From Candidatus Saccharimonadota bacterium (lineage in GTDB: Bacteria > Patescibacteriota > Gracilibacteria > BD1-5 > UBA6164), in NCBI GenBank assembly GCA_965227835.1, contig OZ245768.1, positions 420,001 to 452,000 of the forward strand: a stretch of 32,000 bases of DNA, given 5' to 3'. Position numbers and translations under genes: made by a program. The notes under the pieces were generated by a model, which was not told the origin of the DNA, did not search any database, and was given only the letters and a program-made list of their open reading frames with translations. Shown piece after piece: positions 1-32,000 of the stretch (position 1 is the stretch's first letter; the number at the start of each line of letters is the position of its first letter).

Positions 1-197
1 TCTCAAGAGTGTCTTATTTCTAATCATTTTGGGCTTCTAAGCTCTCCTATTATAGAATCACTTATTTGTTCTTTTAGTTCATCCATTTTTAAAGAAGATG
101 TTTGTTCTATCATCTCTTTTATAGCTTTTAGAGAGAGATTTTCCTCTCTTGCTTGTCTAAAGCTTTCAAAATGGATTTCTCAAAAATTTTCGCTCAT
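1..197 (-). CDS. hypothetical protein, N-terminal part (gene runs off the left edge)
   Basis: ATG at complement 195-197. Frame stays open to position 1 when TGA is sense (3 in-frame TGA). Begins MSENFGEIHFESFRQAREENLSLKAIKEM. No family recognised. Confidence 0.45.
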
Positions 198-362
198 AAT
201 TTTTTTATATTTTTAATTTTACACGTAAATTGTAACATATATTTTTTTGAGAGTCAAAAAACTGACTACAATGTTTTTTATATCTTACAAAATAAAAAGT
301 TGTTTTGACTTATATTTCGGCAAAACTATAATAATTTTAGTTTTTTATTTTAAAGTTATTTT

Positions 363-1280
363 ATGGTTAGAAATTTAAAAATATGATCACTTAATTGGAT
401 AGATTGAGTTTGAATAAAGGATGAAGAGATAAAAAATATTTTATCTAAACATAGTGTACATGAGCTTGATATAGAGGCTTGTTTGGAGTGAAATCAAAAA
501 GCAAGGATTGATAACTATCCATGATATTCTTTTTTGATACTTCATTTTCCTAAATACAACAGAATAAAAAAACTATATGAACTTAATCAGTTTAATATAT
601 TTATATCTAAAAATGATTTAATTACCTTTAGAAATGCTACTTGAAATCATATAAATAGAATATTTAATTATTATGGTAGTTTGAAATCATCAGTTAAAAA
701 AAGGGATATAAAAATTAGCACTTGATATATATTGTATGAAATTACACAAGCTATGCTTGAAAAAATGTTTAATGTTATAAAAAATATAACTCTTGATATA
801 AAAACGATAGAAACAAAGATTTTTGATTGAAAAGATAGTACAAGTCTTGTTAGAGATATAATGATAAAAAAAAGAAATATAATTACTTTGAAACATATGT
901 TTAAACCTCAAATAGCTGTGTTGAAACAATTAAAAAATTTGATAAATGATATATACAAATGAGAGATAGAGGTTTATTTTGAAGATTTGGAAGATAAACT
1001 TGACCAAATAGTTAATGATATAAATGTATTGCAAGAGTATATGGAAGGTGTTGAAAATTCTTTTAAGTCTATAGTTGATATAAAAACTAATTTTGTAATA
1101 AAAATACTTACAGCTTTTTCTGCTTTTATGCTTCCTCTTACCTTAGTTACTAGTTTTTACTGAATGAATATAGATTTGTCTCCTTATCAAAATATTAATA
1201 TACCTCTTTTTCTTTTTTCTATTGGTTTGTCTTTTATAGTTATTATTTATTTGTTTTTGAGAAGTGGTTGAAGGTTTTAG
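363..1280 (+). CDS. corA: magnesium/cobalt transporter CorA
   Basis: 306-codon frame open only with TGA as sense. C-terminus has two hydrophobic helices and the signature LVTSFYGMNIDL, in which the G of YGMN is the TGA at 1161-1163. Stop TAG at 1278-1280. Confidence 0.9.
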
Positions 1281-1603: not shown

Positions 1604-2977
1604 ATGACTCCAAGAATAACAATTATAGGTAGACCAAATGTTTGAAAATCAAGTTTTTTCAATTTATATACCTGACATAAAATAGCAATTATAGATAATA
1701 TTTCTGGAACAACTAGAGATATATCTGAATTTGAATTCTATGATTCTAAAAATGATATAAAATATATAATTGCTGATTCTTGATGACTTGATTTTTGATC
1801 AAAAACTGATGAGGTTTCTTTAGATATTATAGAAAAAACAAGAGAATCTATGAAATCTTCAGAACTTTTAGTGTGGGTTTTGGAATATGATAAATTTAGT
1901 AATCTAGATGAAAAAATATTAAAAGTTCTGAAAAAGCAAAATTTTAATAACTATATAATAGTTGCTAATAAAGCTGATAATGAATCATTTGTTATGGAGT
2001 CTTGGAATATATCTGGAAAGTGAGAGCTTGAATTCTTTCCAGTTTCTGTTTCCCATAATTCTTGAATAGATAGTATCAAAGATTTTATTTCTTCTTATTT
2101 AAAAAATAATTGATTATCTCAAATAGATAATAGGGAGGAAAAAGATTTTATAAAGTTATCAATTATAGGTAGACCAAATGTAGGGAAGAGTAGTATTATA
2201 AATACTATTTTAGGTAAAGACAGGCTTATGGTAAAAGATATGGCTTGAACAACTCGTGATAGTATTGATTCTAGATTCGTTTATAATGATAAAAACTTTA
2301 TTTTAATTGATACAGCCTGAATTAGAAGACTTAGTAAAGTTTGAGTTAGGAATGTAGAAAATTGGTCTGTGATGAGATCACAAAGATCTTTGAAAAGATC
2401 AGATATTGTTTGACTAGTTATTGATTGATTTGAATGAATAGTTTCCCAAGATTTATCTATAGTAAATATGGTCTTAGAAGAAAAAAAAGGGCTTGTTTTA
2501 ATTATTAATAAATGGGATAAAGTATTGAATAAACCTTGAATAAACAAATCTAGTATAATGAATAAGTATATAGAATATTTGCAAGAAAAAATAGAATTTA
2601 TCCCTTGGATTCCTATTGTTTTTACTTCAGCTCTTGATAAAAAAAGACTAGATGAGATCTTAAAAAGAGCTATAGAAATATCAAATGAGAGAGTAAAGAG
2701 AGTAAAAACAGGGGTATTAAATAACTTTTTAAAAAAACTTGTGTATAAGCACCCTCCTACTTGAACCAAAAAATCACATTCCCCTAAAATATACTATGTT
2801 ACTCAAGCAGATATTAATCCTCCAAAATTTGTTTTTTCTGTTTCAAATCCAGAACATTTTCATTTTTCTTATAAAAGATATATTGAAAATAGGATAAGGG
2901 ATAATTTTTGATTTAGTTGAACTCCTATTATTATAGAATATAGATGAAGATGAAAAAATAAATGAAAAATAAAATAA
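1604..2977 (+). CDS. der: ribosome-associated GTPase Der/EngA (two tandem GTPase domains plus KH-like C-terminus)
   Basis: Two P-loops [11 protein letters not shown]: the first uses TGA (1643-1645) for the Gly, the second uses GGG (2183-2185). DSGG, DTAGIRR, NKAD and NKWD motifs are present. I counted 21 in-frame TGA. Track ORF 2558..2764 is an in-frame fragment. Stop TAA at 2975-2977. Confidence 0.95.
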
Positions 2978-3494: not shown

Positions 3495-4547
3495 TTATTC
3501 AGGTTTTTTGTAATAATATCATCTCTTCTTTCTTCTCATACTTTCTATAATCCAATTAAACCAATATTTACTGGATATAGGTAAATCTTGAGTATGGAGT
3601 AAACTATAATCATAACCTCAAAATTTTCTTTTGAATTTTGTAACTCAAGATAGAGGATGTTTTTTGTTATCATCAGGTGAAATTCACCAAAAATTATATA
3701 GTTTACAACCTCTTTCTTTTGCATCTTTTATAGCTTCCCATTGACACAAGTAATTCGGGGAAAATTTATGATTTATTATCTCACTTGTAGCTATATAATA
3801 AACACAAGTCTTTCAAAAAGATATAGTCATAAGTATTGACTCTGTTTTTCATTCAAAACTGGTTGATATAGTATTTATATTATCTCAAAATAAATCATAT
3901 AAATAGTTTATAAAATCACTTGAAAAGGGATGATAACCTACTTTTTTTGAATGTCTTATATGCATATTTGTAAGAATTTCTATTTGTTTTTTAGTGTTTC
4001 ATTTTACTATAGAAACTCACTGTTTTATAGCTCTGTTTATATAATATCTATCTTTTTTCTTTATATTTTTCATCAACTCATCTACACTTTTTGATAAATC
4101 AAGTAAGTGAGTATCTTCTGCATGTTCATGCATAGGAGCATTTATAAAACCTAAATTTTTGAATTTATTTTTATTTTCTACCAAGTTTTTCTCTGTAGAA
4201 TTAATCCTTATAAAATCAAATTTATTATTTCTAGCATAGTTTTTTAAATCTATTATAACTTCTTTTAAAACATCAAAGAAATCTCATTTTATAAGAGGTC
4301 AATGAGGGATAAATAAATAAGATCATCTTTTTGCTCTTATACATATTACCTGCATAACTCATATTAAGCTATTATTTCATTTTTTTGACTCTTTTTCATA
4401 TATTCAATATCTTATAATATCTTTTTTTAATTTTTTTTGAACCTCTCACCATTCCCAAGATTGAAGAAAACTATAAAATTCAAAATCAGATTTTATAATA
4501 AAACTGTTCCAAATATTTTTTTTTGTTATTTCTTTAAGCTTATACAT
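3495..4547 (-). CDS. FemAB-family peptidoglycan aminoacyl/peptidyl transferase (FemX-like)
   Basis: 351 codons open on the minus strand with TGA as sense. N-terminus FLQSWEWGEVQKK. C-terminus YYIATSEIINHKFSPNYLCQWEAIKDAKERGCKLYNFWGISPDDNKKHPLSGVTKFKRKFGG, typical of the FemAB family. Confidence 0.85.
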
Positions 4548-4555: not shown

Positions 4556-5830
4556 CTAAAAATTATTTATCAAATTTACAACCCTGTCCAAATCATTTTT
4601 ATTTATTAGTTTATGGCTAGGTAGTGTTAAAATTCTTTCACTTATATTTTCTGCTATTTTACACTTTCATTTTTTATAAAATGCTTTCTTTAAATCTATT
4701 CAGGAAGGAACAATGTTTTGTCCACTCCAGCTTGTTCAAAATATTATTTTATTTTTTCTTCATAATTCTATCAATCTATCTTTTTCTTTTTTTGATTTTA
4801 AAAGTATAGGAAATCTAAATCAGTTGTAGTTTTTTAAATCTTCAAAAACTATTTTCACTTTTGAGTTTTTGATGTTTTTCAAATAATATCATGCATTTTT
4901 TAGTCTTTTTTTAGTGTAGTATTCTAGTTTATCAAATTCTTTTATTCATAGATATGCCAAGGAGTTTGGCAGAGATAAATTAAAATTTGTATCCATAAAC
5001 TTTTTCTCATTTTCACTTAATATTTCTGTTATAATATTTAGTTTTCTTGATGTAAAAATAATTAGTTTTCATAAAGAAAAAAAGTCATAAAATTTATATG
5101 ATAAATATCAAATTATATTGTAAAATAAGTTTCTTATAATTAAAATCTTTGTAGGCATTTGTAGTGTATTTCTTATTCATTGTAGCTTGGAGAAATACTT
5201 TTTATTTTTCACTACAAGAAATCATCAACCAATACTTGATATTACTTTGTCTCTTCAGCTAGAAAAAACTAAGAAATCTCATTCTTGTTTTTCTTTTGAT
5301 AATACTAAACCATGTGCTAAGTCTTCTATAATTATTATTCCCCTTTTTTTAGCTTCTTTTATTATTTTTTCATAATCTCTATGTTTTTTTCAAAAGCTAT
5401 TTTGTAATATAATTACTTTTGTATTTTTATTTATATTTTTTATTAGTTTTTCTAAATCAAAACTTAGGCTGTCTCTTTCTATATCACTATAAACTATTTT
5501 TGCCCTAGATTTAATTACAGAATTACAAACAACACTACAAGTATAAGAATTTACTATAACTTCATCACTTTTTTCAATTCATATAATTTTTAAAGCATGG
5601 TATATAGCAGACCTAGCATTATAAAAACTTAAAATTTTCTTTTTTTTACTTTCTTTTTTATAAGAACTATCTATATTCAAAAGTCTTTTTTCAAGTTTTT
5701 TAATTTCTTCTCATTTTTCTATTTTTTTTATGTATATACTCAATAAAAACAAACTATCGAGCATTTGAGAAAAGCTTATTGTGGAGAAAAAATCAGATAT
5801 TATAGTTTTTTTTAATATAAATTTTGACAT
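4556..5830 (-). CDS. DegT/DnrJ/EryC1/StrS-family PLP-dependent aminotransferase-like protein
   Basis: 425 codons, stop TAG at 4556-4558, 8 nt upstream of the FemAB-like start. Motifs SFYNARSAIYHALK, VIVNSYTCSVV and FSSGRDKVISSIGGGFL (candidate PLP lysine). Confidence 0.75.
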
Positions 5831-5855
5831 TTGCATTATAATGATTATTATATGA

Positions 5856-5927
5856 TAGTTGATATTTCAACAAATAGTATAAGCTTATCTCTATAATTTG
5901 AAAAATTATTTTTTCTTTTTATATGGG
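5856..5927 (+). promoter_or_regulatory. conserved 72-nt upstream block with TATAAT (5892-5897), copy 1
   Basis: 100 percent identical to 6325-6396. The TATAAT lies 76 nt before the ATG. No clear -35 element. Confidence 0.4.
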
Positions 5928-5972
5928 GTTTAGTTTTATTTTAATAAATTCTATTAAACAAAGGAGAATGTT

Positions 5973-6179: not shown

Positions 6180-6188
6180 GCTAATTTT

Positions 6189-6224
6189 AAAACACCATTT
6201 GGGATTAATCCCAAATGGTGTTTT
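6189..6224 (+). terminator. rho-independent terminator of paralog 1
   Basis: AAAACACCATTTGGGA-TTAA-TCCCAAATGGTGTTTT, a perfect long stem with a T-run. Confidence 0.85.
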
Positions 6225-6324
6225 CTTAAGGAGATACTGAAAAATTAACATCTATGAAAAAATCAGATATTATAGTTTTTTTTAATATAAATTTTGACAT
6301 TTAATTTTTATTTATTATTGTAGA

Positions 6325-6396: not shown

Positions 6397-6442
6397 GATT
6401 TTGACTTATTTTAGTAAATTATGTTAAACAAAGGAGAATTTT

Positions 6443-6878: not shown

Positions 6879-8522
6879 TTACTTTCTAAATTTATCAAAA
6901 TATATCCTTGATCATCTTCATTCAAAAAGTATTGTGGAATTTTTGATATTATCCATATTTTCCAATATATTATCTTCTTTAAATCAAGCTTCTAAAATTC
7001 AATCTAGAAAATATTTTCAATAATTCACCCCGCAATAAAATATTTGGTTTACTTCTTTTTTCTTTGCTATTTTTTGTCATAGTTCAAAGTGAATTTTTTT
7101 AGAGTATTTTCACAATTCTAATACATCATCCATAACTAAAACTTTATTTCATTTATATGTCCCAAGTATGTTTATTCAAGCTAAAAGTCATTCAATGGGT
7201 AGATTATAAGAATCATTTATTAAGATGTTACTTTTGTTTTTAAATACTCAAAGTCTATTTTCTGGAAGAGATATATTTTTCAAATATTTTTTAAGGTCAT
7301 TTTGTTTAATTCAAATATCCAAACAAAAAGCTATTACTCAAGTTAGGTTTAATATATTATGTTCTCACACTAAGCTACATTTAAAAGTGTAGTTTTTGTT
7401 TTTATAATGTATTTTAAATTCACTAAATCAGTCATTGGTACCCAATATTTCAGATTGTATATCAAGATTTTTGTCTTTCATTCAATATCTCACCAAATTT
7501 ATTTTTTTCTCATTTATTATAGATTCCTTTATGGCTTTTTTAATATTTTTATCATCTCCATTTACATATAGTGTTCATTTGTTTTTCATAACAGATTCAG
7601 ATATTTCACTTTTACCTTTTATTATATTTTGCTGTGTTCAAAAAATTCATATGTGTTGATTTCAAATAGCTGTCAGGAAACCATGTTTATGATTAACTAT
7701 TTTTCAAAGCAAACTTATTTCTCATATTTTATATGCTCATATTTCAGCTACAAAAAATTTGTATTTGTCGTTTAGTTTATTTATCACTATTTTTGATACT
7801 CATAATTCTGTATTTATGTTTTCGGGTGTTTTTAATGTTTTTGAGTCTTGTTCTAAAATACATGATAACATTTCTTTTATACTTGATTTTCAATAGCTTC
7901 AAGTTATTGCTACCTTTAAGGTATTTTTTGTATTTAGGGATTTTGAAATGGCTTTATTTATAATTTTGTTTTTACTATAATTCACCAAAGGCAAGCTTAT
8001 AAAGTTGTATAAAAATATTATAAGAGGAAGAGCTATAAATATAGTTAATATATATATGTATGTGTAGTTGAAAGAGTTTAAATAGTAAAACATATATAGG
8101 TCTATACCTTGAATTATTATAAATATTGATAAAAGAAAAGTTAATCTAGAACTAAAAACTGGTTTTAAAATGTTTTTCCTGATTATTTTTCATATAACAA
8201 ATATGTTTAGTATCACTAAATACCAAAAAAACATATTATAAAATGTCCCCCAAAATACTATATAGTATGGTGTTTTTGATAAGTATATTAAATATATAGA
8301 TATAGAGTAGAGTAAAAGTATTATATCAATTACAAAAAATACATTAAAAATAGCTTTTTTTCATTGTTTTGTCCATAAATATTCCCTAAATCTATCCCAC
8401 CTATATTCTTTTAATTGTATTGTATAAAGCCAAAAAAGGAGTTTGTAAGCCAAGGGTAAAAATGCTAATATAAAAATTATAGTGTAATCAAGAGGTGTTC
8501 AAATAATAAGTTCTTTTTCCAT
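6879..8522 (-). CDS. murF: UDP-MurNAc-tripeptide--D-Ala-D-Ala ligase (MurF-like) with a polytopic membrane N-terminal domain
   Basis: 548 codons. The first ~190 aa are hydrophobic (about 5 predicted helices). Then comes the Mur-ligase P-loop VAITGSYGKSS (both Gly are TGA, 7890-7892 and 7899-7901). Further motifs: TPENINTELGV, AEIGAYKIGEI, TAIGNQHIGIFG, DSYNLPIEG. Track ORF 7899..8093 is an in-frame fragment. Confidence 0.8.
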
Positions 8523-8612: not shown

Positions 8613-9422
8613 TTACATATTCAATAAAAAGTGTTTTACTAATACTTCTGGATCTTTTAGATGTATGGAGTGGGTTTTGTTTTTTAAAACTATAATTTTT
8701 GATTTTTTGATATTATCTTTCATAAAATATCAATCTCTTAGGGGAGTATATTTGTCTTTTTCTCACCATATAATCAAAGTCTCTATATTTATCTTTTTTA
8801 TTTCTTCTTTTAAATCACAAGCTATCATATTTAAATAAGTCTTTTTTAAGTTTGGATTATCAATTGCTTCTAAATAATCATAATTTCAAATTAATCTGTA
8901 AAATATTTTTTTTGTTTTTTCTAAAACAGATATTTTTCTGTTTTTTAAAAAGTTTATTTTATTAAAAGTTTTTGCCGTGATATTTAATATTTTTCTTTTC
9001 ATATTCCTTTTTATATCATTTCTAATTCAAGCAGAATTGTTTAAAACTAATTTATTTATTTTTATTTTTTTTCTGTTTGCTAATTTTATAGCAATAGCTC
9101 ATCAATTACTATGCCCCAATATAATTAATTTATTAAAATTTATATCTTTATAAATTCTTTTTAAGTTTTCTACAAATTCTTCAAATATGATAGCATATTC
9201 ATCTATGTTATATATTTTTTCACATTTTGTATTTTTTGAGGCTCCTGGTATATCAGGAATAAAGACATTATATCAAGATTTTTGTAATATTTTAGAAAAT
9301 TCATTCCAACTATCAGATGATCATCTCCAACCGTGAAGTATTAATATACTTTGATTTTTATTGCTTTTAAATATATTATAACTTATATCTTGTTTGTTTA
9401 TTTTTATTTCTTTTTTTTGCAT
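8613..9422 (-). CDS. alpha/beta-fold hydrolase
   Basis: 270 codons. LILHGWRGSSDSW and the nucleophile elbow LGHSNGGAIA (GG encoded by TGA TGA). C-terminal KTHSIHL fits a catalytic His. Confidence 0.8.
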
Positions 9423-9486: not shown

Positions 9487-10050
9487 ATGTGAGTTTATAT
9501 ACTACCTACAAATACTTGCTTTTGAATAGCTTGTCCAGCAAATGACTTGGAGAGTTATAAAAAAATATATGAAATAAAAAAAAGAAGCCTTGATAAGGCT
9601 CTTGCTTTTTTATGTCCCAGTTTTGATTATTTAAAAGATAATACATATTTAACTGATTCTCAAATAAATTTCCTGAATCAGTATAAAAGACCTTTTACTA
9701 TACTTATAGATATTGAAAGTATAAAAGATGAGAATTTGAAAAATATAGTTAAAAATTTACCAAACTATCATATTTATAGAAAACTAGGTTTTAGAGTATG
9801 TCATAATTTTATGCAAATTAGGCTTGTTCAAAAAAATTGAATACTTTTTTTGACTAGTGCAAACAAATCTTGAAAACCTGAAATTTTTAATACCAGGGAA
9901 ATAAGAAGAGAATTTAAAAAAGAAATAGATGATTATGAGATAAGTGTTTTTGCTCATCTGGATTATGAAATAAAATCATCTCAAAAATCAAGTGATGTAT
10001 TTCAATTTATTTGAAATAGTTTGGATTTTGAATTTTTGAGAAGGGTTTAA
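9487..10050 (+). CDS. tsaC: L-threonylcarbamoyladenylate synthase, YrdC/TsaC domain protein
   Basis: 188 codons. YILPTNTCFGIAC (PTDTxYG-like), KKRSLDKALAFLC and LTSANKSGKPE (SANxSG motif). Track ORF 9547..9840 is an in-frame fragment. The start is uncertain; ATG 9487 is the first in frame after the stop at 9442. Confidence 0.8.
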
Positions 10051-10556: not shown

Positions 10557-13500
10557 CTAAATTATATTCAACTCTCATTTCCAAAAATCAATATCGCTTA
10601 TTTTTGCCCGACTATCTTTAACTAATTTTTTAAAATCTTCAAAATCCTCATTTGAATAGGGAACAGAAATATATTTATATTCTCAATCTTTTCATTCTAC
10701 AAAATCTATTCCCAGCTCTCAAATATCATATCTAGATTTAAGTTCACTACAATTTTCAAACATAAGCTTATAAAACAAAAGCTGTTTATAATAATCTCAA
10801 CCTTCTTCTTTTTTGTTTCAATTTCTGTCTAATCATTTTATACTTCAAATAGTTTTTGTTTTTCAGGTCTTGTAATCAACTAAAGAAACCTTATTTTTAA
10901 ATAAAGCTTGTTGTCAAAGTGGAGATATTTCTTCAGAAGAAGAATTATCTAAAAAATCAGAAATTATCTCAATTTTATCAATTTTTCAACTCAAAGGTAC
11001 TCATTCAAATAAAACATTTTTTGGATAAAAACTATATTCTGTTTTTAATATTTCTCGTTTATTTTTTATAAATATATCGTAATATCACTCAAATCCCTTA
11101 TTTCATCTCTCTAAAAGTCTAGAGTATTCTTCAAAGTTAAGACTGTATTTATTTATTTCATCTAAAAATAGTTTTTTTATTTTTTCTATAGAGAAAATAT
11201 TTCAATCTTTTTTACCGTTTACAGATACTTCTAAAACTTTATGGTAAGCACTACCAAATATTAAGTTCTCATTATTCAAGAAAGGATATTTAAAAATAAC
11301 TTCTTTTAAAAAAACTTTTGGATCAGATAAAAATTTATTTAAATCTGTAGGGGAGAGCTTGTATGTGGATAAAAAATCTTTTATATATTTTAACTCATCT
11401 TTTTTAGTGCTTATCAAATCCTCTCTACCTATTATACAATCTTTTATCATATTTTTTAAATCTTCTTCTCATGCTTCTGTTTTGTACATTTGAGGAGATA
11501 TACCAGTTTCTACCATAAAAGCAGATTGTAAAAGTATTTTGTTGTCCTTACTTTCTGACATAGTAAAAATTACTGATTTTTTTGCTCTTGTTATAGCAAC
11601 GAAAAAAAGTCTTCTTTCTTCTTCGCTAGATATATTTTTTTCTAAACTTAAATATTCTTTCTCAGATAATCAAGAATATTGTATTCAACTTCAAATCAAT
11701 CATACAGGTAGCTTCAATTTATCTGCAATTTTCTTTTTATTCCAATTTCATTCATAAACCTGAGGGATAAATACATAATCATATTCAAGTCATTTAGAAC
11801 CATGGGCAGTTAATATTACTATATTTGATTCTATTGTTTTCACATTTTCTCTTGATATACTAACTAAGTGTTTTTTATGTAGATCAAATTTATTTATTAT
11901 GTTTTTTAAAGTTATTTCTTTATTATTTTCTATATATCTTTTAATTTTATTTACCAAAGTAAAGAAGTTTTGAATATCATTAAAGTTTCAGTTTTCTTCT
12001 ATGTATCAAAATATATTTAGTTTGTTTATTATATCTCTTATTAGCGAGTTTATTGATAGGTTTGGAGTATTTGATACTAGAGATAAAATCATTTCTCTAA
12101 AATTAACTATTTTTTCTATATTTTTACATGATTCTGTAAGAAAACTATCATTCTCTATATCTCTTATAATATCCCATACTCATAGCCTAAATTTCTTTTT
12201 AGAATAGTTTCTTTGATATAAAGTTCTTGTTATATGAATTACATCTATATTTTCCACATCAACTATATCACTTCTAAGTAAATCAATTAGATGAGAATCA
12301 TCAAAATAAGGGTTTTCTATAAGTTTTAAAAATTTTATAAAAAAGTCACAATATATATTTTTTAATATGTCTATACTGTTTTTTGAGTCTACAACTAAAC
12401 CTTTTCTTTGAAAAAAATCTGTCCATTCTTCTACCTGTTTATTTGTTTTCACTATTACTGCAAAACTTTCTTTATTTATATCTTTTTTTACTATTTGTTC
12501 ATAAACAAAGTTTTTCTCCAAAAATTCATTTTCTAGTATAAAAAATCAATTATTATCTAAACTTTTACTTTCTCATACAGCCTTTAAATCTTTTATTATA
12601 TTTTCATAATTGTTAGATATTCTTTGGCTATTTTTTCCTATTAATATTTGGGAAATATCAAGTATAGACTGGCTTGATCTATAATTTTGATCAAGGATTA
12701 CTGTATGTCTTTTTGGGTAAATTTTGCTGAAATTTAATATATTTTCTATATTTGCTCATTGGAAACGATATATAGATTGATCATCATCTCACACAACCAT
12801 TATATTTTGTTCTTCTGGAAAGTACGATAATATTAGGTTTATAATATTGTTTTGTGAGTTGTTTGTATCTTGAAATTCATCAACCATTATAAATTGAAAT
12901 TTTTCAGCATAATAAGCTAACATATCTGACTTTTTTTCAAATTTATCTGTTACAAAATTTATCATATCAGCATAATCGTATAATCATATATCTCTTATTT
13001 TTTCTTGGTACTTCTCATATATCAAAGCCAGTTCTTTGAGTTTATTTATATGTTTGTCATAAGTTTCCTTATCTTTTTTCATTCTTTTTCCCAAGTCTCT
13101 TATTCTTTTATTCTCATTTAAAGCTGAAATCTTCTCATCATATATTTCTTGCTGTTTTAGTATTATTTCTCTAAAATCTTTTGTAGATACTCATTCTGTT
13201 TTTAGTTTTCCAATTCTATCTTTTATATCTCTCAAATACATATATCTGTCTTGAGGACTGAAAAGTTCATTTATTTCTTCTTTTTTTATATATTCATCTA
13301 ATATATTGCTCAATATCTCATACGATTCTATTTCATCTATTATAGATTTTGCTTTTTCTTCTATAAAATTTTCAGGAAAATCACTAATTATTTCATCACA
13401 AAAAGAGTGAAAAGTTGTTATTTTCACTTTGTAAGCACTTGTTCATATAAAACTTACAAGTCTTTTTTTGATTGCTACTACTCAAGCTTCTGTGAATGTA

Positions 13501-13947: not shown

Positions 13948-14135
13948 CAGTTGAATACTATATCTTCTTCTTCATTAATTGCACTTCATTTCTTACTTTG
14001 TGTTCCCTTGTAGTATTATAGTTGAACTCTTGCATTATTTTCCTACCTAAACTCTACATCGTAAGCTAACACATATTTAAAATCTCTTCAATTGTCTTCA
14101 TAAAACTTGAAGAAATAATATCAACTAAGATTATA

Positions 14136-18325: not shown

Positions 18326-19771
18326 CTATTTAGCTTCTTTCCAATTTATTCAAACTCAAAAATCAGCTTTTAGTATTACTTCTTTATTATCCAAAATAGA
18401 CTCCATAATTTTGGGGATTTCTAGTTTCAATACTTCTTCTTCTCATGGGAATAAATCAAATACAAGTTCATCATGTACTTGCATTATCATAAGAGATTTT
18501 AAATTTCTTTCTTTTAAAAAACTAGAAACTCTTATCATAGCTATCTTTATTATATCAGCTGAAGTTCATTGCACAGGCATATTTATTGCCTCTCTATCAG
18601 CACTGTTTTTTATAATTTTATTAGAGTCATTTATTCATTTTATATACCTCTTTCTTCAAAAAAGAGTTTCTACATATGTATTTTTTTCACAAAATTCAAT
18701 AGTATCCTGCAAGTATTTCTTTACTTTTGGATAGCTTTCAAAAAATTTGTCTATGTAGTTTCTAGCATCAATTACAGATATATCAATCATTTTTGATAAT
18801 CAAAAAGCAGAAATCCCGTAAACAACTCCAAAATTCACTGCTTTTGCTATTTTTCTGTCTTCTACTCATATAAATTCAGCTGTTCTAGTGTGTATATCAA
18901 ATCATTTTTTAAAAGTATCTATTAAGTTTTCATCTCAACTCATCAAGGCAAGTATTCTAAGTTCTACTTGAGAATAATCAAAAGATATTATTTTTCATTT
19001 ATCAAATCTTGATATAAAAGCAGATCTTATTTCTCATGCTATTCATCAAGAAATGGGTATATTTTGTAGGTTTGGAGAGTTGCTTGATAGTCTTCAAGTT
19101 GAAGTAACGGTTTGATTGTAGTTTGTATGAAGAAAATCATTTTCATCAAGTAAATCTATAAGTCATTTTATGTATGTAGAATTAAGTTTTGAATAATGTC
19201 TGTATTTTATTATTTTTTCACAAACAGGATAATTCCTAGCTAGATTTTCTAATACTTCTGAGTTTACACTCCAACCTGTTTTTGTTTTTTTTCATTTTGG
19301 TAATCAGAGTTTTTCAAAAAGTATTTCTCAAACTTGTTTAGGAGAGCTTATATTAAATTCTTCTCATACTTCTTCAAATATAGAGCTACTTAGGATTATT
19401 ATTTCTTTTTCAAAAATTGTTCAAAGTTCTTTTAATCTATCTCTATCAATTTTTACCCCAGATATTTCCACATCTTTTATTACTTTTAAAAGAGGTATTT
19501 CTATATCGTTTAGAACTTTATCTGAAAATATTTTTTCTTCTTTTTGAGATTTTAGCAATAAATTTGTTATATAAACATCTTCTCATGAGTATTTAGAAGC
19601 TGTGTCCAAATCTATATCTATAAAATCTAAATGTTTTTTCTCTGTTATATCTTGATAGCTTATCATTTCATAATCAAATTTTCTATCTGCTATTTTATCA
19701 AGAGATAATCATCTTTCTCATGGATTTTTTATATACTGGGCAATTATCGTGTCATATATTTTTGCTTTCAT
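18326..19771 (-). CDS. polA: family A DNA polymerase, polymerase domain only (N-terminally truncated PolA)
   Basis: 482 codons. TNYNQTVTSTGRLSSNSPNLQNIP, DYSQVELRILA, KAVNFGVVYGISAFGL, REAINMPVQGTSADI, QVHDELVF. It starts at MKAKIYDTIIAQYIKNPGERG, which corresponds to the end of the 3'-5' exonuclease region. Confidence 0.9.
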
Positions 19772-19869
19772 AAATTTTTTATATATTTGCTTAGTAATAA
19801 TTTTTTGGCAGAAGATTTCAGTCTTTTGAACTCTTTGATATTTCAAATCTTACCTTTGATTTTAATATG

Positions 19870-19997: not shown

Positions 19998-20441
19998 TTA
20001 TAAAACATCATCACTTATTTTTTCATATTCAAAAACTCATTCTCAACCAAAAAATCTTTCAATTTCTTCTTTAGCAGATTTTTCGCTATCACTAGCATGT
20101 ATTATATTACCATCAATTGTTAATCCAAAATCTCATCTAATAGAACCTGGAAGAGCTTCTTCTGGATTTGTAGCTCCACTAAGAGTTCTTACAGTACTTA
20201 TTGAATTCATACCAGATACAGCTATCGCTACCACTGGTGTTCTTTGCATGTATTTTAATATAGAAGGAAAAAAAGGTTTATCAGTAAGAAAATCATAATG
20301 TTCCTCTATTATTTCTTTGTTTAGTTTCATCATTTTCATACCTGAAATTTTTAATCATTTATTTTCAAGTCTAGTTATAATTTGACCTATTATACTTCTT
20401 TCAATAGTATCTGGTTTTAGTAAAACTAATGTGGTTTCCAT
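19998..20441 (-). CDS. ndk: nucleoside diphosphate kinase
   Basis: 148 codons. METTLVLLKPD, GSIRGDFG (G is TGA), NIIHASDS. Track ORF 20133..20339 is an in-frame fragment. Confidence 0.9.
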
Positions 20442-20701: not shown

Positions 20702-21788
20702 GGGCTAATACCAAAAATGTGTGCTATTTTTGCTTAAGATTTCTATTATAAATCCAAAGAGATATGAAAGAAATAATCCTATGTTTTTTTAATCATCTGT
20801 GAGAATAAATATGATTAGATAAAACTCCATTATATCATTCTAAATCATTAGAACTTCTTTTGATATTTTTATCTTTAATATAATGAAACATATATGGAAG
20901 AGCATTTTTTATGTGTTTTTTCGCCTGTCTGAGTCTTCGATGAGTATACCAAGTTCTTATTCAATTTGAACTTTTCTCTTTTAAAAAATCAAAGTATTTT
21001 CTCTCCCAACTCTGGAAATATTCAGTAAAAATTTTCTCATTTTCAAAGTTTTTAAAATTCATTATTTTCTGTAAATCTTTTCAACAATCACTTTGAGGTT
21101 TTTTAGATATATAATTTGTTATTTGTCTGTGAATATGTGTTAAACATCTCTGAAATTTTGCATTAGGATATATTTCTCCTATTGCTTTTTTTATTTGTTT
21201 GCTTCAATCTACAGTAAAACTCAAAATATTATATTTAAATTCATATTTAAGAATTCTTAAGTCTTCTAGTATATCCTCATATCTTTCTCAATTATAAAAA
21301 CCAAAACGAATAACTTTTTTTTGTATATATTCATAGTAAATTATAAGACATATATTTTTTGAAATCCATATCCCATCTATCATTACATAACTTATATTTT
21401 TAAACACAAGATCTATTTGAAATATTTTGTTTGAATCAAGATGACTTTGAATATTTTTAAGTATATCTTTTTTGTTTTTTAATTTCTGTTTTCAAAGTTG
21501 TCTACATGAATATCATTCTTCAATCCAATCTTGAAATATTTTTTCTCAATATATTCTTGGGGTTTTTCTTGTTGAGATAACGAAACAAAAATTACATTTT
21601 TTACATTTATATTTTTGTTTTCACTGACTATTCTTTCAGTTCTTTTTTATATAAATACAACGACATTTGGGACAGTTTTTTTTGCATAATAAAATTTTAT
21701 TTTTTAAACTACATAAATATATCTTATTTCTTCCTTATTTAATGCAAAAAATCTATACCTTTTTAGCACACATTTTTGGTATTAGCCC
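20702..21788 (-). mobile_element. insertion sequence (1087 bp) with perfect 25-bp terminal inverted repeats
   Basis: GGGCTAATACCAAAAATGTGTGCTA at 20702-20726 is the exact reverse complement of 21764-21788. Carries a single DDE transposase gene and is flanked by the 8-bp direct repeat TATTTTTT. Confidence 0.9.
20724..21687 (-). CDS. DDE transposase with N-terminal CxxC...CxxC zinc ribbon (IS256/Mutator-like core; family uncertain); start displaced by one frame at an A8 run
   Basis: 321-codon frame begins CKKNCPKCRCIYIKKNGKNSQGKQKYKCKKCNFCF. Candidate catalytic residues: YVMIDGIW, FTVDGSKQIKKAIGEIYPNAKFQRCLTHIHRQI, SSNDLEGYNG. Many in-frame TGA. Stop TAG lies inside the left IR. The only ATG (21685-21687) is one frame off, across the A8 run (T8 at 21676-21683). 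Confidence 0.65.
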
Positions 21789-21846: not shown

Positions 21847-24800
21847 CTATTTTGTGAAAAGGGGAGGAGGTGATATCTGCACTTCAGGATTATATTTTAT
21901 TACTACAGGATATTGTGATTCTTCTTCACTAGATCCAAAATTATTTTCTTCAATTCATCTTCTTAAATAATTTAAATCATATTTTTGTGCCTCATCAAGA
22001 GTACAATCAAAACTATTTTCACTATATTTATAAAATGGACAAACAGGAGGATTTTTTCTAGATCATCATATCGTATTTTCAGAGAATAGTGATCAATGTA
22101 TATATAGTTGATTTTTTAGTACTTCATATGTTCAACCATTGCTTGGAGAAATTTCTCACCATATATCATTATAACTTATAGCTGATTTATCTGCATAAAG
22201 TGCTGCTCCTATTTTTCTCACTTCAGGATCTATATATATATTTCATCAATTATTATTATCGTCTTTTAATACTATAATTCATCAAATAGTTAAATTTCAG
22301 GTTATATATGCATTTGCTCATAGTATTACTATAGTTTTTTCTCAACAGTTACTACAAGAATTTATTGTATGAATTTTTGAATTTGCATTTCTATAATCAT
22401 AATATATTACTTTTCAATTAATCAAACTTGTTCATGTAGGGCTTCAAGATACATTTTTTATTACTTCAAAAGCATTTTTTCTTATATTTCATCTTAGTTC
22501 TCACTTATCTATATCTCAAGCTATATTTTTTATATCTTGTTCTTGATTTTCTACCAAATCTTTTTGCTTTGATTCATCTATATTAGTAAGACCATATATT
22601 TTTATAGTATTTGAATTTTGTCCTTGATTTCATCATATTGTTCAAGCTTTATAGATTACAGTTTTATTTGTATCTATTACATATTCTAAATAAGCATTTA
22701 CAACTATATCTTTTGCTTGATCTATAAATCAATCTTTATCTGGATCTAAAGTGAAAAGGGTATCAAAATTCATCTCAGATGTTTTAAATTCAGAGGAATT
22801 ATTATAAAAGACTTTTTTTCATCATTTATTAAATGTGTATTCTGTTCAACTATCTATACTTCAAGTTCAATTAAAGTTTTCATAGTTAGTATCTGTTCAA
22901 GTTTGTTCTAAAGATATTTTATTAATACTGGTTGTTTTACTAGTTGTTTTTATAACTTGTACACTTCAAGTTTGGGTTACTCATTCTATAAATCAGTTAT
23001 CTTTTTGATTTCATCTAAATTCTATTTCATATGCAGGAGAAAAATTAAATTTTATGGGGTTCTCTATTAAAGGTTTATTATATATATCTCATATATTTCA
23101 ATTTACATCTAAAAATATTTGATTTATTGTGAAATTATTTCAATTTATAGTTGGAGCATAAACTTTGAAGTTTAAAGGATATTGTCAGTCTGATGATTCA
23201 AAATTGTTAAATTCTTTGTCTTTATTATCTCATAAGCTAAATAAATTACTATAGATATTAGAACTTCAAGTATTTGCAAGAATAGCATTACCTAAATTAT
23301 TATATTGATTTAAATAGAGAGAATTAGATGTATTAAACTTTAAATCAATAGTTCTTGATATTCAGGAAGCAGTTACTATTTGGTTTCAATAATTATCTTC
23401 TAAAGATGTTCATAACTCATAAGGAATTCAATCTGCTATTTTTCATACAGTTAAAATATTTGATGTTATTGTGCTTGCTATATTTTCTGTATTTGCATAA
23501 ACATTATAATTGTATGTTGCTACATTGTTTCAACTACTACAATTTCAGGCTTCATCACAGATTTTATCTATGGTTAGGGTGTATTGCCTAGAACCGTCTG
23601 TTTCTCTGTCTCTATCTACATCTTGCATATTTAAGTCTTCACTAAAACTCCAAGAATTTACTGTTCCTGTGCTTGAAGAGTTTTTATCATTATAATTTTC
23701 AAAACTATAATCTATTGATACAATAGGAGATCATCAGTTTATTCAAACTTCAAAACTTACATTTTCACTACTATTTGCTAAAATATTTGAATCATCAGTA
23801 TGAGATAAATTTTTTATGTCATCTATCGTTGGAGCTGTAGTATCAATATTGGTTATCACATAAGAAACACTTGTCTCATTTCAGGCATTATCTTTTACGG
23901 TTATACTTGAACTAGTATTTTCTGTAAAAGTTTTAGAGTATGTATTTCAACTTATAGACCATCAACTGATATTATACATATCGCATCAACTTCATCATTC
24001 ATCACTACAAGTTATACTTACAGTTACTCATGAATTAGTCCAAATATCTGGAGAATAAGAAACATCTCATGAAGGTAATATTTTATCAATATTATCTACA
24101 TCATAAGTGGCAGTCGTTTCATTTCAAACATTGTCTATTAAAGTTATTGTTCAAGTAGTATTTTCTGTAAAAGTTTTAGAGTATATATTTCCACTTATAG
24201 TCCATCAAGTATTAGTATATGTCATATCACATCAACTTCATCAAGTATCACTACAAGTTATATTTACCGTTACTCATGAATTAGTCCAAATATCTGGAGA
24301 ATAAGAAGTAGACCATGTGGGACCTGTGATATCAATATTGGCTACACTATAGCTAGCAGTTCAAATATTTCAGGCAACATCTTCTACAGTTATACTTGAA
24401 ATAGTATTTTCTGTAAAAGTTTTAGAGTATATATTTCCACTTATAGTCCATCAAGTATTAGTATATGTCATATCACATCAACTTCATCAAGTATCACTAC
24501 AAGTTATATTTACCGTTACTCATGAATTAGTCCAAATATCTGGAGAATAAGAAGTAGATCATGAAGGATTTTCTCAATCCCAATATAAACAATACATGGT
24601 TCAGCTTTCAGCTACATCATCTTCATTATCTCAATGGGCTTCTGTTGTACTAGAATCATTGTTTTTTGCCACAGCACCTTTTGTTGCATCATCTCAATCT
24701 CAATCACCATCTCATGGACATATAGTTCATTTGTTTGGTCAAGTAGGACTTTCTCCTTGATTGCTTAATTCAGCTCCTCCAGGATTAGAATACGAAACTG

Positions 24801-24888
24801 CATGATTACCATACCAATTTCAAAAAGTTTGATTTGATGAAAACCAAATAAAAATTGATAAAATTATGAAAAATATTTGTTTTCTCAT
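21847..24888 (-). CDS. large secreted/surface protein with three tandem ~82-aa Ig-like repeats
   Basis: 1014 codons (length divisible by 3; N-terminus checked codon by codon). Signal peptide MRKQIFFIILSIFIWFSSNQTFG. Acidic GDGDGDGDD linker. Repeats SYSPDIWTNSGVTVNITCSDTGGSGCDMTYTNTGWTISGNIYSKTFTENT. C-terminal region rich in Asn/Gly/Thr. Stop TAG at 21847-21849. Confidence 0.8.
23815..24557. repeat. three tandem 246-bp coding repeats inside the surface-protein gene
   Basis: 24158-24311 and 24404-24557 are identical by eye over ~154 nt. The third unit (about 23815-24065) is clearly more diverged. Confidence 0.85.
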
Positions 24889-24916
24889 TTTTGTTTTTGT
24901 TTTTGTTTTTGTTTTT
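24888..24916. repeat. hexanucleotide microsatellite (TTTTTG)4-5 abutting the surface-protein start codon
   Basis: G at 24893, 24899, 24905 and 24911. On the coding strand this reads AAAAAC x4 and then AAAAATG. Confidence 0.9.
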
Positions 24917-24950
24917 ATATAAAATACATATATATTTTCTCATAATTTAC

Positions 24951-24990
24951 AAAAAAAAGCAAAATATTTACTCTTTATTTTGCTTTTTTT
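24951..24990. terminator. bidirectional terminator between the 631-aa gene and the surface-protein promoter
   Basis: A8-GCAAAATA-loop-TATTTTGC-T7. The T-run overlaps the stop codon of the upstream gene. Confidence 0.75.
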
Positions 24991-26884
24991 AGAGTTTCCA
25001 GTTCATTCAGATAGAAATACTATCATTTTGATTTATTCAGTTATCTGTCCTTTCAATTCAAGCACTTACAGAAAGTGTATCAAATATATTTCATGTCATT
25101 CCTATTTCCCTTGTTATTTCATTTAATAAAAAAGGATTATCTGAATTATCCAAATTTTCATATGAAAACGATATCTGTCCTTTTTGATTTCATAAATTAG
25201 CTTCAAATCAGGTTTTTTCGTATCATAATCATTTTTCACCACTTATGTTACTAGAAGCTCTCATGTTTCAATCATCATATGTCAAACCTAAATCAATAGA
25301 TTTTTTTTCAAATTCTCTTGTTCAACCATCATACCCAACTCTAATATTTTTTCGTGAAATATCAGCTCAATATCATAGATTTATATTTCAAACTAGATTT
25401 TGTGAAATAGATTGTTCCAAATTTAATGAGGCTCCATAATTTAAAGTATGGTCATTTGAATTATTATTTTTTTCAGATTCAGTTCGTTGAAATTGATGTA
25501 CTGCTCATAATCATATATTTGTATTTCAATTATCAAATAGTTGATTATAATATTTAAAATCAAATCAAATATTATTAAATTCTCTTGTTTTTCAATTTTC
25601 CCACTCAAAATAATTTTTTGAAAGTTTTAATCAAACTCAGTAAGTTCAAAATGTATCATTACTAACCGTTTTTTCTAAATATGTTCAATAAGAATCATAA
25701 TTTGCATAGTCTAAACTATTTGTTCTATTAAAAAAAACTCATGTTTTCATTCCACTATTTGCATAACTTAAATCAATACTTTTTGAGCTTTTTGTATCAA
25801 GTTCTCAATCTATGTTAAATCAATGCTTATATTCTAATCATTCTCTGCTTAGTTCCCTAGAATATTCTAGACTATCTCCTGTATTAATTGAAGATGTAGT
25901 TGATTCAAATAACTCTTCTAAATCAGTCTGAATAAAACCCAATAATTTTCATCTAGCATCTCAAACTTCTTCTCTAATTTTAATTGATCATTTTTCTGCT
26001 AGATATCTAGCTTTTAATTCTTTGGGATCACTTGATTCGTAATAGTTTCAATAATCTATAAAAAAAAATTTACCATCCTGATTTCTTCACCGAGTTATTG
26101 AATGATTTCCTCAAGAAGTTGTACTTATAATTCAAGTATTAAATCAAACAGATTCCAAAAACTTAGCTACTTCGCTATGATGATGTCTACATACTCCTGC
26201 TACTCAAAAGTTTATATATGCGTCCCACATATCTTGCGATGAAACATCTCAAGAGTTACCCATTTGATCACTATCATATCAAACATTACCCATATATATA
26301 CTCATAAACATAGCTAGTTCTATTTTATTTTGTTCTGATTGATTTTCATAATTTTCTCTTAATATTTCAAGTGGACTTCTATCTGTTTGCCCAGCTTCAA
26401 ATAAAGAATTTAGAAAATTTAGTTGTTCATCAAAGAATCTGTTATTTTCAGATAATTTTTCCTGCCCTCCTTCTACACCACATATAAAATCTAAACTATC
26501 AGTTGTTCTTTCAATATAACAAGTTCTATTTGATTGAGAATTTTCATCATATAATTTATAAAAAACTCTAATAGCATCTTGTATACTTCAATCTCACTCT
26601 GAAGAATTATCATATCTATCTATTAAAACATCTTCTTTTTGGGCAGTTGAGCTTCTATTTACTAGATTTATATTAATGTATATATCATTTCTTGTATTTT
26701 CTACTAAATTATTAACATCTCTATATGTTTCTAAATTTAAAGACTCCAAATCTCATTTTGTATTCTCTACCAATTCTTGAGAATCTTCTGATTCAATATA
26801 TTCTTCTATTCCATTTGTATTAAATCATTGTGTTTCATTTGTATTTTGATTTATATTTTCTGTTATATTATTTTCTCTTTCCAT
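24989..26884 (-). CDS. transglutaminase-like Cys-His-Asp domain protein with beta-strand-rich C-terminal half
   Basis: 632 codons. No signal peptide (MERENNITENINQNTNE). Core GVAGVCRHHHSEVAKFLESVGFNTGIISTTSGGNHSITRGRNQDGKFFFIDYG. C-terminus shows alternating-hydrophobic segments (IRVGYDG, LGLTYDD, ISFSYEN, LSVSAGIE, ISIGMNWKL). Confidence 0.7.
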
Positions 26885-26889: not shown

Positions 26890-27243
26890 TTATATGTTAT
26901 TAATGATATTTTCTAATTGTTCCTCTGATTGTTTATTTTCTAAGTCTTCTATTTCTCTTATATTTTTAATACCTTTAAATATTTCTCCTGTTTTTTTAAT
27001 ATTCATATCCTCTATACCTTTTGTTAATCCACTTTTAAACCTATATCATATTTTTCATAATCATTTTTTGTAATTATATTTTATAATACCTAAATTTTTT
27101 TGTTCTTCTTCAAATATTTCTATCATTTTATTTATACCTTTTTTCTCATTTTTTATTATATTAAAAAGACTTATCTTTTCTTCAGGATTCAAAGATAAGC
27201 TTTTATCTATAAGTGTTGATAAATAATAAATGTTACTAAACAT
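26890..27243 (-). CDS. hypothetical protein (117 aa)
   Basis: Track ORF 27061..27243 continues through TGA codons to the TAA at 26890-26892, 5 nt before the next gene start. Lys/Glu/Ile-rich. No family recognised. Confidence 0.6.
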
Positions 27244-30208: not shown

Positions 30209-30361
30209 AATTTTTATTTTAAAATATTATTATTTTTATAATTTTAACATAAATGTATGTAATAAGTCAAAAATTTACTTAGATTTTTTTGATGTTCTCC
30301 AAATCTTGCTTTTTAGAAAAAATTAATATGATTTTATAAAATATAAAAAATTCATATTTTA

Positions 30362-32000
30362 ATGACTAATTTGGAAAAAATATTACAAGAAAACTTTTGA
30401 CTGGAAAGTTTTAGAGAATGACAAAAAGAAATTTGTGAGAGTGTTATTTCTGGGAAAGACACTCTTGTTTTTATGCCTACTTGATGATGAAAATCTCTTA
30501 CTTATCAGCTTCCATGACTTGTACTTGATTGACTGGTTGTAGTAATCTCTCCTCTTATATCACTTATGAAAGATCAAGTTGATAGCCTTACAGAAATATG
30601 AATAAAAGCAAAACTTATAAACTCAACAATAGACTCAAATGACATATCCCTTATTTTATCTGAACTTGAAAACTCTACTTCAAATCCAATAAAATTTTTA
30701 TACATAGCTCCCGAAAGACTTAACTCACCTAAATTTTTAAATGTAATAAACAGATTAAAAGTAGCTTTGGTTGCAATAGATGAAGCTCATTGTATAAGCC
30801 AATGGGGTCATGATTTTAGACCAAGCTATATGAAAATACTTGGTTTTTTAAATAGCTTGAAAACTAAAGATAATTTCCCAACAATAGCTCTCACTGCTAC
30901 TGCTACTAAAAAAGTGAGAAATGACATAATAGAAAGACTTGATATATCATGAGCAAATATCTTTACCAAATGATTTGATAGAAAAAATATAACCATAATT
31001 GTCAGAGAAATATCAGAAAAACAAAAGAAATTTTGAAAGGTTTTAGAAATATTGGATAAAACAAAATGATCAGGGATAATTTATTGTTCTAGTAGAAAAT
31101 CAGTGGATGAGGTATATGAACTTATGCAAGATTATCGTGTAAAAGCTGGAAAATATACATGAGCTATGACCCCAGAACTTAGAGAAGAAATGCAGAATAA
31201 ATTTATGAATTGAGAATACAAAGCGATAATAGCAACTAATGCTTTTTGAATGTGAATTGATAAAAAAGATATAAGGTTTGTAATCCATTTTAATCTTCCT
31301 GGGAGTATAGAAAATTATTATCAAGAAATAGGTAGGTCTTGAAGAGATTGAGAAAATAGTTTTGCTGTAGCTTTAGCTAGTTATTGAGACACAAAAATAC
31401 AAGAGTTTTTTATAGAAAATACTTACCCTTCCAAAGAAGAAGTACTTAAATTATATGATTATTTATATAGAGATTTCAAAATATGACAGTGAACAAATCA
31501 TAGTATATCTATGACTTTACACCAGCTAGCTAGTCATAGCTGAATACAAAATGATATGAGAGTTTGAAATATTATAAAGATACTTGATAAATACAATATA
31601 CTATCTAGATGAGTTAGTGATAGTGATAGGGAAGAGGGATTTAGATGAAAATGACTTGTTTTATTGCAAGAAAAAAGAAATCATAGCCATATACTTATTG
31701 ATTGGAAAAAACAAGATTTATTGAAGGATGAAGCTTATTTTAAACTTGAACAAATAAAAAGATTACTTTTTTATCCAAGTTGTAGAAAAAGATTTATTTT
31801 AGAATATTTTTGAGATGAAGAAGACCTTCAAAGTCTTCCAGAGAATTGTGGAGCATGTGATTTTTGTATTGATAGAAAGAAATTTGAAAAATCTCCTTCA
31901 AAAGAATTAATACCTGTCTCTACATTTGTTTTAATTTTGGAAACCGTAAAAAAATATGATGAAAGGTTTTGACAGGTACTTATTAGAAAAACTCTTGAAT
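30362..32000 (+). CDS. recQ: ATP-dependent DNA helicase RecQ (C-terminus beyond right edge)
   Basis: FREGQKEI. FMPTGGGKS with three consecutive TGA at 30482-30490. [67 protein letters not shown]. Zinc-binding [12 protein letters not shown]...CGACDFC. Track ORF 30767..30952 is an in-frame fragment. Confidence 0.95.

Follow-up and report, generated by a model that had tools for sequence, protein, structure and literature searches.

UGA decoded as glycine, and CGG most likely as tryptophan, in a 32-kb chromosomal window from the Gracilibacteria

INTRODUCTION

Translation table 25, the SR1/Gracilibacteria code, reassigns UGA from stop to glycine; PMC8629427 credits it to Campbell et al. and Rinke et al., both published in 2013. 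Proteomics confirmed this assignment in BD1-5, with 97 glycine-specific versus 3 tryptophan-specific peptides (PMC4032931), and the release factor gene prfB is reported to be missing from all BD1-5 genomes examined (PMC6851277). A further reassignment has been predicted with Codetta by Shulgina and Eddy (2021), who assigned both CGA and CGG to tryptophan in Absconditabacteria and CGG to tryptophan in some Gracilibacteria (PMC8629427). Here, we examine how TGA and CGG are decoded in a 32-kb stretch of bacterial DNA (contig OZ245768.1, positions 420,001 to 452,000), the whole of which is hereafter referred to as the window.

Our analysis leaves little doubt that the window represents ordinary chromosomal DNA, low in GC (24.9%), from a member of the Gracilibacteria (BD1-5), within the Candidate Phyla Radiation (CPR), in which UGA is translated as glycine (table 25) and CGG, most likely, as tryptophan. 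Glycine decoding of UGA has been established since 2013-2014 and is known biology, so its recovery in this window is not in itself a discovery. An original prediction, made from the sequence of the window, had proposed that TGA is a glycine codon throughout and that the DNA belongs with the Gracilibacteria/Absconditabacteria code. The claims on which it rested are taken up below together with the results that bear on them.

RESULTS

All window-wide counts refer to the 32-kb window. When TGA was treated as a stop, it yielded 14 open reading frames (ORFs) of at least 100 aa, the longest of 170 aa. A count with a 60-aa cutoff gave 41 ORFs, the longest of 162 aa: 23 run antisense to real genes, 14 are pieces of such genes read in frame, and 4 belong to neither group; the in-frame pieces cover just 13.5% of the true coding bases. 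The standard-code ORF track is indeed fragmentary and partly antisense, as the original prediction had it, although the figure of about 60 short ORFs was too high. With TAA and TAG as the only stops, 19 long genes were recovered at a coding density of 83.6%, the longest frame spanning 1061 codons. TAA or TAG is expected at 6 to 8% of random codons in this DNA, and the probability of such a frame arising by chance is about 5e-38. Reading TGA as sense does reduce the ORFs to fewer, longer genes, but the anticipated number of about 22 was not matched, the count being 19 long genes plus two ORFs of about 70 aa in the gap at 5.8 to 6.8 kb. Across 8914 in-frame codons there are 416 TGA and no TAA or TAG, and all 18 complete genes terminate in TAA (11) or TAG (7), in line with the proposal that these are the sole stops.

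To keep the test of TGA identity noncircular, TGA was masked as X in the window proteins before Pfam searches and alignment. Pfam still matched those masked proteins for which Table 1 names a Pfam family, several of them (CorA, Ndk, the PolA domain, and S41) over near-full profile length. Seven were aligned to their Escherichia coli K-12 orthologues (uvrD, corA, recQ, polA, der, ndk, and murF). Glycine was found opposite 48 of the 96 aligned TGA codons, followed by alanine (10), aspartate (6), and serine (6), with neither tryptophan nor cysteine opposite any. Since glycine makes up 6.9% of the aligned E. coli residues, the enrichment is highly significant (binomial P, 5e-30) and bears out the expectation that TGA would concentrate on glycine columns. 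Glycine was also the best-scoring residue for TGA (mean BLOSUM62 score, 2.32), serine ranking second at 0.21. In the same set, GGN codons stood opposite glycine in 25 of 40 cases, a rate similar to that of TGA, and the 11 TGG codons faced tryptophan four times and phenylalanine or tyrosine five times. None of the other codons sampled in this set deviated convincingly from its standard meaning; the best-scoring residue differed from the assigned one only in near-ties, at TCA (A, 0.78, versus S, 0.70), GAC, and TGT.

Two further alignments to standard-code proteins point the same way. In Bacillus subtilis Der (PDB 2hjg), glycine is opposite 14 of 18 aligned TGA codons, including the glycines of both the G1 and the G3 motifs. 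Among 76 standard-code PolA sequences, glycine is the majority residue in 10 of the 24 TGA columns, two of them invariant, and tryptophan in none. Because the top homologues of the window proteins come from close relatives whose records follow table 4 or 25, they were not used as independent evidence.

At conserved motifs, TGA specifies glycine where the original prediction had located it (coordinates in Table 1): in the first P-loop of Der (GRPNV-X-KS), whose second P-loop carries GGG instead, in the FY-X-MN motif of CorA, in the Walker A sequence IA-X-PGSGKT of the UvrD-like helicase, in the nucleophile elbow GHSN-XX of the hydrolase, at both X positions of IT-X-SY-X-KSS in the MurF-like ligase, and at three successive positions of PT-XXX-KS in RecQ. 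The TGA and GGN tallies given for der proved exact. The S41 peptidase motif, described as RGN-GGG, needs partial correction: glycine is encoded by TGA there, but the codons run R-TGA-N-GGT-TGA-GGA, so that two of the four glycines are TGA and there is no run of three. TGG keeps its standard meaning, as proposed; the tryptophan of the Der NKWD motif is TGG, and the alignments with E. coli and with relatives concur. Taken at the level of sequence, these comparisons support the features of table 25 in which UGA is decoded as glycine, UAA and UAG are the sole stops, and UGG still specifies tryptophan.

The codons of relatives agree with the masked alignments to E. coli, B. subtilis Der, and PolA on the glycine meaning of TGA. 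We compared the window, codon by codon, with four Candidatus Gracilibacteria metagenome-assembled genome (MAG) loci (L005 to L008) that are syntenic over g08 to g13. In 343 pairs, a window TGA codon was matched by TGA 195 times, by GGN 51 times, by TGG once, and by other codons 96 times. Conversely, window GGN codons lay opposite TGA 49 times, and window TGG codons lay opposite TGG in 28 of 33 pairs and never opposite TGA. TGA and GGN therefore swap among relatives while TGA and TGG do not, and TGA is synonymous with GGN, not with TGG, in this clade. As to usage, the window contains 416 TGA versus 150 GGN codons (GGT, 75; GGA, 53; GGG, 21; GGC, 1). TGA is thus the preferred glycine codon, as had been suspected, at 73.5% of glycine codons and 46.7 per 1000 codons. 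Its share in relatives ranges from 51 to 92%, and a TGA majority is hence typical of low-GC Gracilibacteria rather than peculiar to this genome.

The decoding machinery suggested by the lineage literature would comprise a dedicated tRNA-Gly(UCA) that reads UGA and carries the glycyl-tRNA synthetase (GlyRS) identity set G1:C72, C2:G71, G3:C70, and U73. Loss of release factor 2 would have abolished termination at UGA, and AT mutation pressure may then have favored TGA over the GC-rich GGN codons. When metagenomic contigs were scanned for tRNA-like patterns having the anticodon UCA and the acceptor GCG...CGC-U, 80 loci (L093 to L172) were returned. An ARAGORN-validated 79-nt tRNA(UCA) ending in CCA, with the acceptor GCGGGGG...CCCCCGC-U-CCA, is present in 51 of them. 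The contigs that carry it are mostly low in GC, and reading TGA as sense raises their long-ORF coverage several-fold. These tRNA(UCA) genes are highly conserved (26 distinct sequences among the 51 loci, with CCA encoded), often adjoin tRNA-Arg(GCG) or tRNA-Gly(GCC), and, as drawn by ARAGORN, have an atypical D-arm and an anticodon stem of 6 bp.

Three points weigh against the glycine assignment. First, in distant orthologues a residue other than glycine stands opposite about half of the TGA codons; because GGN codons mismatch at a similar rate, we read these residues as ordinary divergence. Second, the tRNA scan and Pfam found no tRNA gene and no release factor gene within the window, and tRNA scans of the window and of 12 relatives' loci turned up tRNAs for Lys, Thr, Tyr, and Leu alone, every one of them in a single locus (L090). 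Third, the elements that mark the metagenomic tRNA(UCA) as glycine-specific were imposed by the search pattern and, being required by it, are not independent evidence; what can be counted as evidence is the cloverleaf together with its genomic surroundings.

The affiliation of the organism follows from its closest named relatives. For RecQ, UvrD, and PolA, the best-matching homologues that bear a name belong to "Candidatus Gracilibacteria bacterium"; the named homologues also include two records titled "uncultured bacterium (gcode 4)", and the name Absconditabacteria does not occur among them. Once exact copies are set aside, the next-best identity is about 60% for UvrD and about 75% for RecQ. 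The gene order g08 to g13 is common to the window and the Candidatus Gracilibacteria MAG loci. With Candidatus Gracilibacteria supplying the best named homologues, sequence similarity supports a position within Gracilibacteria/Absconditabacteria (GTDB class JAEDAM01), specifically on the BD1-5/Gracilibacteria side. The code placement of the original prediction holds to this extent, but table 25 by itself probably falls short of the full code, as each of the window's two CGG codons lies on a tryptophan column.

Arginine-box codons in the window are dominated by AGA (249), with AGG (41), CGT (4), CGA (4), CGG (2), and CGC (0) making up the rest. The column of the CGG codon in the UvrD-like helicase (g08 residue 1027; Table 1) contains, among 119 UvrD relatives, W in 83, R in 35, F in 1, and nothing else. 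In the five "R" relatives whose DNA was fetched (L085, L086, L090, L091, and L092; 42 to 58% identity), the codon is CGG in every case and is the sole CGG of its gene, among 31 to 39 arginine codons that are mostly AGA. We then pooled all orthologous ORF pairs from 12 Gracilibacteria loci. CGG was paired with CGG 30 times, with TGG 20 times, and with GCA once, but never with AGA, AGG, or CGT; in contrast, CGT was opposite AGA 41 times and AGG opposite AGA 191 times. Counted as distinct sites, 12 of 13 CGG codons lie on columns with TGG or CGG only. CGA behaves differently, falling on arginine columns at 3 of 10 sites and on TGG or tryptophan at none; the column of the CGA codon at g08 residue 878 has R in 78, E in 17, and K in 10 sequences. 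With CGG on tryptophan columns and CGA arginine-like, the organism most likely combines UGA = Gly with CGG = Trp.

The strongest competitor to CGG = Trp is plain table 25, in which CGG is still arginine and the W/R columns reflect true polymorphism. TGG becomes CGG by a single T-to-C change, and some Gracilibacteria do read CGG as arginine according to Shulgina and Eddy (PMC8629427). Several observations count against the tryptophan assignment and in favor of this alternative: the window holds only two CGG codons, three other conserved tryptophan columns of UvrD are without any "R" in the 119 relatives, and 1 of the 13 CGG sites in the lineage faced GCA. The absence of "R" from those other UvrD columns would mean that CGG use is sparse. 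Against it, the window's true arginine codons are 83% AGA and 0.7% CGG, whereas the "R" of the UvrD column is CGG here and in all five sampled relatives, down to 42% identity, and never AGA. Moreover, that column admits neither K nor Q, CGG is never opposite an arginine codon lineage-wide despite the ready exchange of CGT and AGG with AGA, and the second CGG of the window, in g16, is also opposite TGG. We therefore regard the persistence of arginine at CGG as unlikely and consider it probable, from codon substitution among orthologues, that CGG encodes tryptophan in the organism of the window. Table 25 leaves all other 61 codons standard, which, on this small sample, is probably not the case here owing to CGG. 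For the organism and its close relatives together, we lean, with less assurance, towards a code of UGA = Gly and CGG = Trp with CGA kept as arginine, a combination that matches no NCBI table.

Such a code raises the issue of how CGA and CGG would be told apart. tRNA(UCG) normally reads CGG besides CGA. The inosine-type tRNA-Arg(ACG) is absent from CPR bacteria, according to Shulgina and Eddy (PMC8629427), so CGA needs tRNA(UCG), and a clean CGA/CGG split would imply either a tRNA(UCG) with restricted wobble or ambiguous decoding of CGG. The CGG decoder would be a tRNA(CCG) with tryptophan identity; no tRNA(CCG) was seen in the DNA examined, the 80 metagenomic loci included.

Next in standing, and very improbable, is table 4, under which UGA would be tryptophan, the rendering adopted for this genome by the public protein collection. 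A GC content of 25% would fit such a code, and the collection's copies of window proteins have W at each TGA: P0001 (g19), P0121 (g02), P0123 (g13), P0126 (g08), and P0246 (g16) are exact copies in this sense, and all five map to one NCBI/ENA contig of 1,489,121 bp. P0001 is identical to RecQ over the 546 residues within the window, bar W at all 28 TGA codons, its P-loop reading PTWWWKS. Likewise, 97 of 119 RecQ relatives in the collection were translated with TGA as tryptophan (5.0% W, 2.7% G). The W in these records is an artifact of translation by several measures. Tryptophan faces none of the 96 aligned TGA codons in E. coli, against 48 for glycine; TGA encodes invariant P-loop and elbow glycines; and the single TGG among the 343 codon pairs contrasts with 51 GGN. 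Tryptophan would rise to 5.4% of residues if TGA encoded it, while glycine amounts to 6.35%, a normal share, if TGA is glycine. The W-translated RecQ relatives themselves betray the error, since their "W" alternates with G (31 to 41%): columns of window TGA hold 54% W and 32% G, and columns of window GGN hold 46% W and 41% G, whereas columns of true TGG hold W throughout (100%).

Less probable still is the standard code, with TGA as real stops in pseudogenes, sequencing or assembly errors, programmed readthrough, or selenocysteine: heavily pseudogenized DNA would likewise show no table-11 ORF longer than 170 aa, but the 416 TGA codons lie in frames that reach a length of 1061 codons and are devoid of TAA, TAG, and frameshifts, Pfam domains are recovered over near-full profile length, TGA sites are kept as TGA or GGN in relatives at 42 to 61% protein identity, and selenocysteine is at odds with one TGA per 21 codons, with the lack of cysteine opposite the 96 aligned TGA codons, and with an Rfam scan of the window that returned no RNA family and no selenocysteine insertion sequence (SECIS).

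The gene content of the window is listed in Table 1.

Table 1. Genes of the window and its two CGG codons, with window coordinates
Feature	Coordinates	Strand	Evidence and remarks
g01, CorA Mg/Co transporter	363..1280	+	Pfam CorA, E 4.8e-47, profile 3-290/292, X-masked; 11 TGA, including the YGMN Gly at 1161-1163
g02, Der/EngA double GTPase	1604..2977	+	Pfam MMR_HSR1 x2 and KH_dom-like; 21 TGA, 8 GGN; P-loop Gly TGA at 1643-1645 (first) and GGG at 2183-2185 (second)
g03, FemAB-family peptidyltransferase	3495..4547	-	Pfam FemAB, E 1.5e-21; 16 TGA
g04, DegT/DnrJ/EryC1-type aminotransferase	4556..5836	-	Pfam PF01041, E 9.5e-30; 17 TGA
g05, MurF-like Mur ligase	6879..8522	-	Pfam Mur_ligase_M and E. 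coli MurF alignment; 29 TGA; P-loop IT-G-SY-G-KSS, both Gly TGA (7899-7901, 7890-7892)
g06, alpha/beta hydrolase	8613..9422	-	Pfam Abhydrolase_1/Hydrolase_4; nucleophile elbow GHSN-GG, TGA TGA at 9099-9104
g07, YrdC/Sua5-family protein	9487..10050	+	Pfam PF01300, E 1.5e-20; 5 TGA
g08, UvrD/PcrA-like helicase, 1043 aa	10557..13688	-	Pfam UvrD-helicase and UvrD_C; 36 TGA, Walker A Gly at 13590-13592; syntenic orthologues in L006 and L008
CGG codon, g08 residue 1027	10608..10610	-	Trp column; TGG in L006 and L008
g09, transglutaminase-like protein	14043..15638	-	Pfam Transglut_core; orthologues in L006-L008; 13 TGA
g10, S41 C-terminal processing peptidase with PDZ	16055..17599	-	Pfam Peptidase_S41 and PDZ; 25 TGA; motif R-G-N-G-G-G, TGA at 16505-16507 and 16496-16498
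g11, small membrane protein, 75 aa	17739..17966	-	Orthologues in L005-L008, E 1e-18 to 6e-21; 9 TGA
g12, DNA polymerase I, polymerase domain only	18326..19846	-	Pfam DNA_pol_A, E 1.7e-126; 24 TGA
g13, nucleoside diphosphate kinase	19998..20441	-	Pfam NDK, E 4.9e-48; 4 TGA
g14, Mutator/IS66-like transposase ORF	20724..21734	-	Pfam Transposase_mut, E 5.9e-11
g15, large secreted repeat protein, 1059 aa, no known family	21847..25026	-	ORF table; 83 TGA
g16, lineage-specific protein, 631 aa	24989..26884	-	4 distant homologues only, plus exact copy in public collection; 41 TGA
CGG codon followed by TGA, g16 residue 265	26090..26092	-	Trp column; TGG-TGA aligned in P0247 (L087) and P0249 (L088/L089)
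g17, 117-aa protein	26890..27243	-	ORF table, no Pfam match; 3 TGA
g18, acidic, seemingly coiled-coil protein, 977 aa	27275..30208	-	ORF table, no Pfam match; 37 TGA
g19, RecQ helicase, runs off the window	30362..31999	+	Pfam DEAD, Helicase_C, RecQ_Zn_bind; 28 TGA; PT-GGG-KS is TGA TGA TGA at 30482-30490

Several of these genes have uncommon architectures. In the MurF-like ligase, a hydrophobic stretch of about 200 residues that seems to span the membrane stands in place of the usual N-terminal domain. PolA (506 aa) starts at TTG and is without exonuclease domains, and its orthologues in relatives measure 487 to 490 aa. In the transposase ORF g14, the first ATG, GTG, or TTG occurs at 21407 and the preceding 108 codons encode a CPKC...CKKC zinc ribbon; the ORF is either truncated or has an unusual start codon. 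The genes g15 to g18 form a block of large lineage-specific proteins. The first of them contains three 246-nt tandem repeats (23828-24567) encoding a Cys-containing domain of about 82 aa (YSPDIWTNSGVTVNITCSDTGGSGCD...), and, as called, it shares 38 nt with g16; the true start is likely the signal-peptide Met at 24888.

Two kinds of repeat occupy intergenic DNA. The 1-kb gap at 5786-6772 consists of two tandem copies, 76 to 91% identical, of a unit of about 480 bp, each with a plus-strand ORF of about 70 aa (TKEN[VF]M...DELI[NK]AGF...) and a near-perfect 36-nt palindrome, AAAACACCATTTGGGATTAATCCCAAATGGTGTTTT (6189-6224 and 6677-6712). A GC-rich repeat is dispersed downstream of genes, at 1340-1450, 13700-14042, 15740-15900, and 18080-18240. 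Its core is the hairpin CCCTCTCC-TTAGA-GGAGAGGG with flanks of the GATAGAACAG type. Three exact or near-exact hairpin copies (1405-1423, 15815-15833, and 18142-18160) were found where chance predicts zero, and degenerate copies occur in the gap at 13.7 to 14.0 kb. The gaps that bear this repeat have a GC content of 32 to 37% versus 25% overall and gave no Rfam match; the element may be a terminator or resemble repetitive extragenic palindromic (REP) sequences or miniature inverted-repeat transposable elements (MITEs).

DISCUSSION

How this DNA is translated has practical consequences for the records derived from it. Gene calls with table 11 are useless on this contig, as they capture 13.5% of its coding bases and the majority of the ORFs run antisense. 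A table-4 call places tryptophan at 416 glycine positions, the catalytic P-loops included. Mistranslated records of this kind degrade homology searches, structure prediction, and family building across the clade.

If CGG is indeed tryptophan, public proteomes of the clade would be wrong at CGG sites even when translated with table 25, and at TGA as well where table 4 was used. The glycine-translated record P0209 (GCA_041659565.1), for instance, keeps R at the CGG/Trp column. Our CGG result provides independent, codon-level support for a reassignment that has so far been only computationally predicted, and the CGG codons at 10608-10610 and 26090-26092 offer concrete sites for proteomics.

Among the known codes, table 4 (UGA = Trp) is that of Mycoplasma/Spiroplasma and some insect endosymbionts. 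As in those organisms, UGA is sense here and the genome is small and rich in AT; gene callers give the same ORF boundaries under either table. The amino acid differs, being glycine here, and table-4 translations carry about 5% spurious tryptophan.

Table 25 is much closer. Its UGA = Gly, its UAA and UAG stops, and its UGG = Trp all recur in this window, as do low GC, membership in the CPR, and Candidatus Gracilibacteria relatives; TGA is the majority glycine codon both here and in those relatives. The difference lies in CGG, which table 25 keeps as arginine, whereas both CGG codons of the window and 12 of the 13 sites at related loci are on tryptophan columns.

The predicted codes described in PMC8629427, i.e., the Absconditabacteria code and the Gracilibacteria CGG variant, share with the window UGA = Gly together with CGG on tryptophan columns in DNA of very low GC. 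In both, CGG is very rare, as it is here at 0.2 per 1000 codons. The assignments in that work were deduced from profile columns, and ours from codon-by-codon substitution among orthologues. The Absconditabacteria code further reads CGA as tryptophan; none of the 10 CGA sites compared here is on a tryptophan column, which agrees with the Gracilibacteria variant instead.

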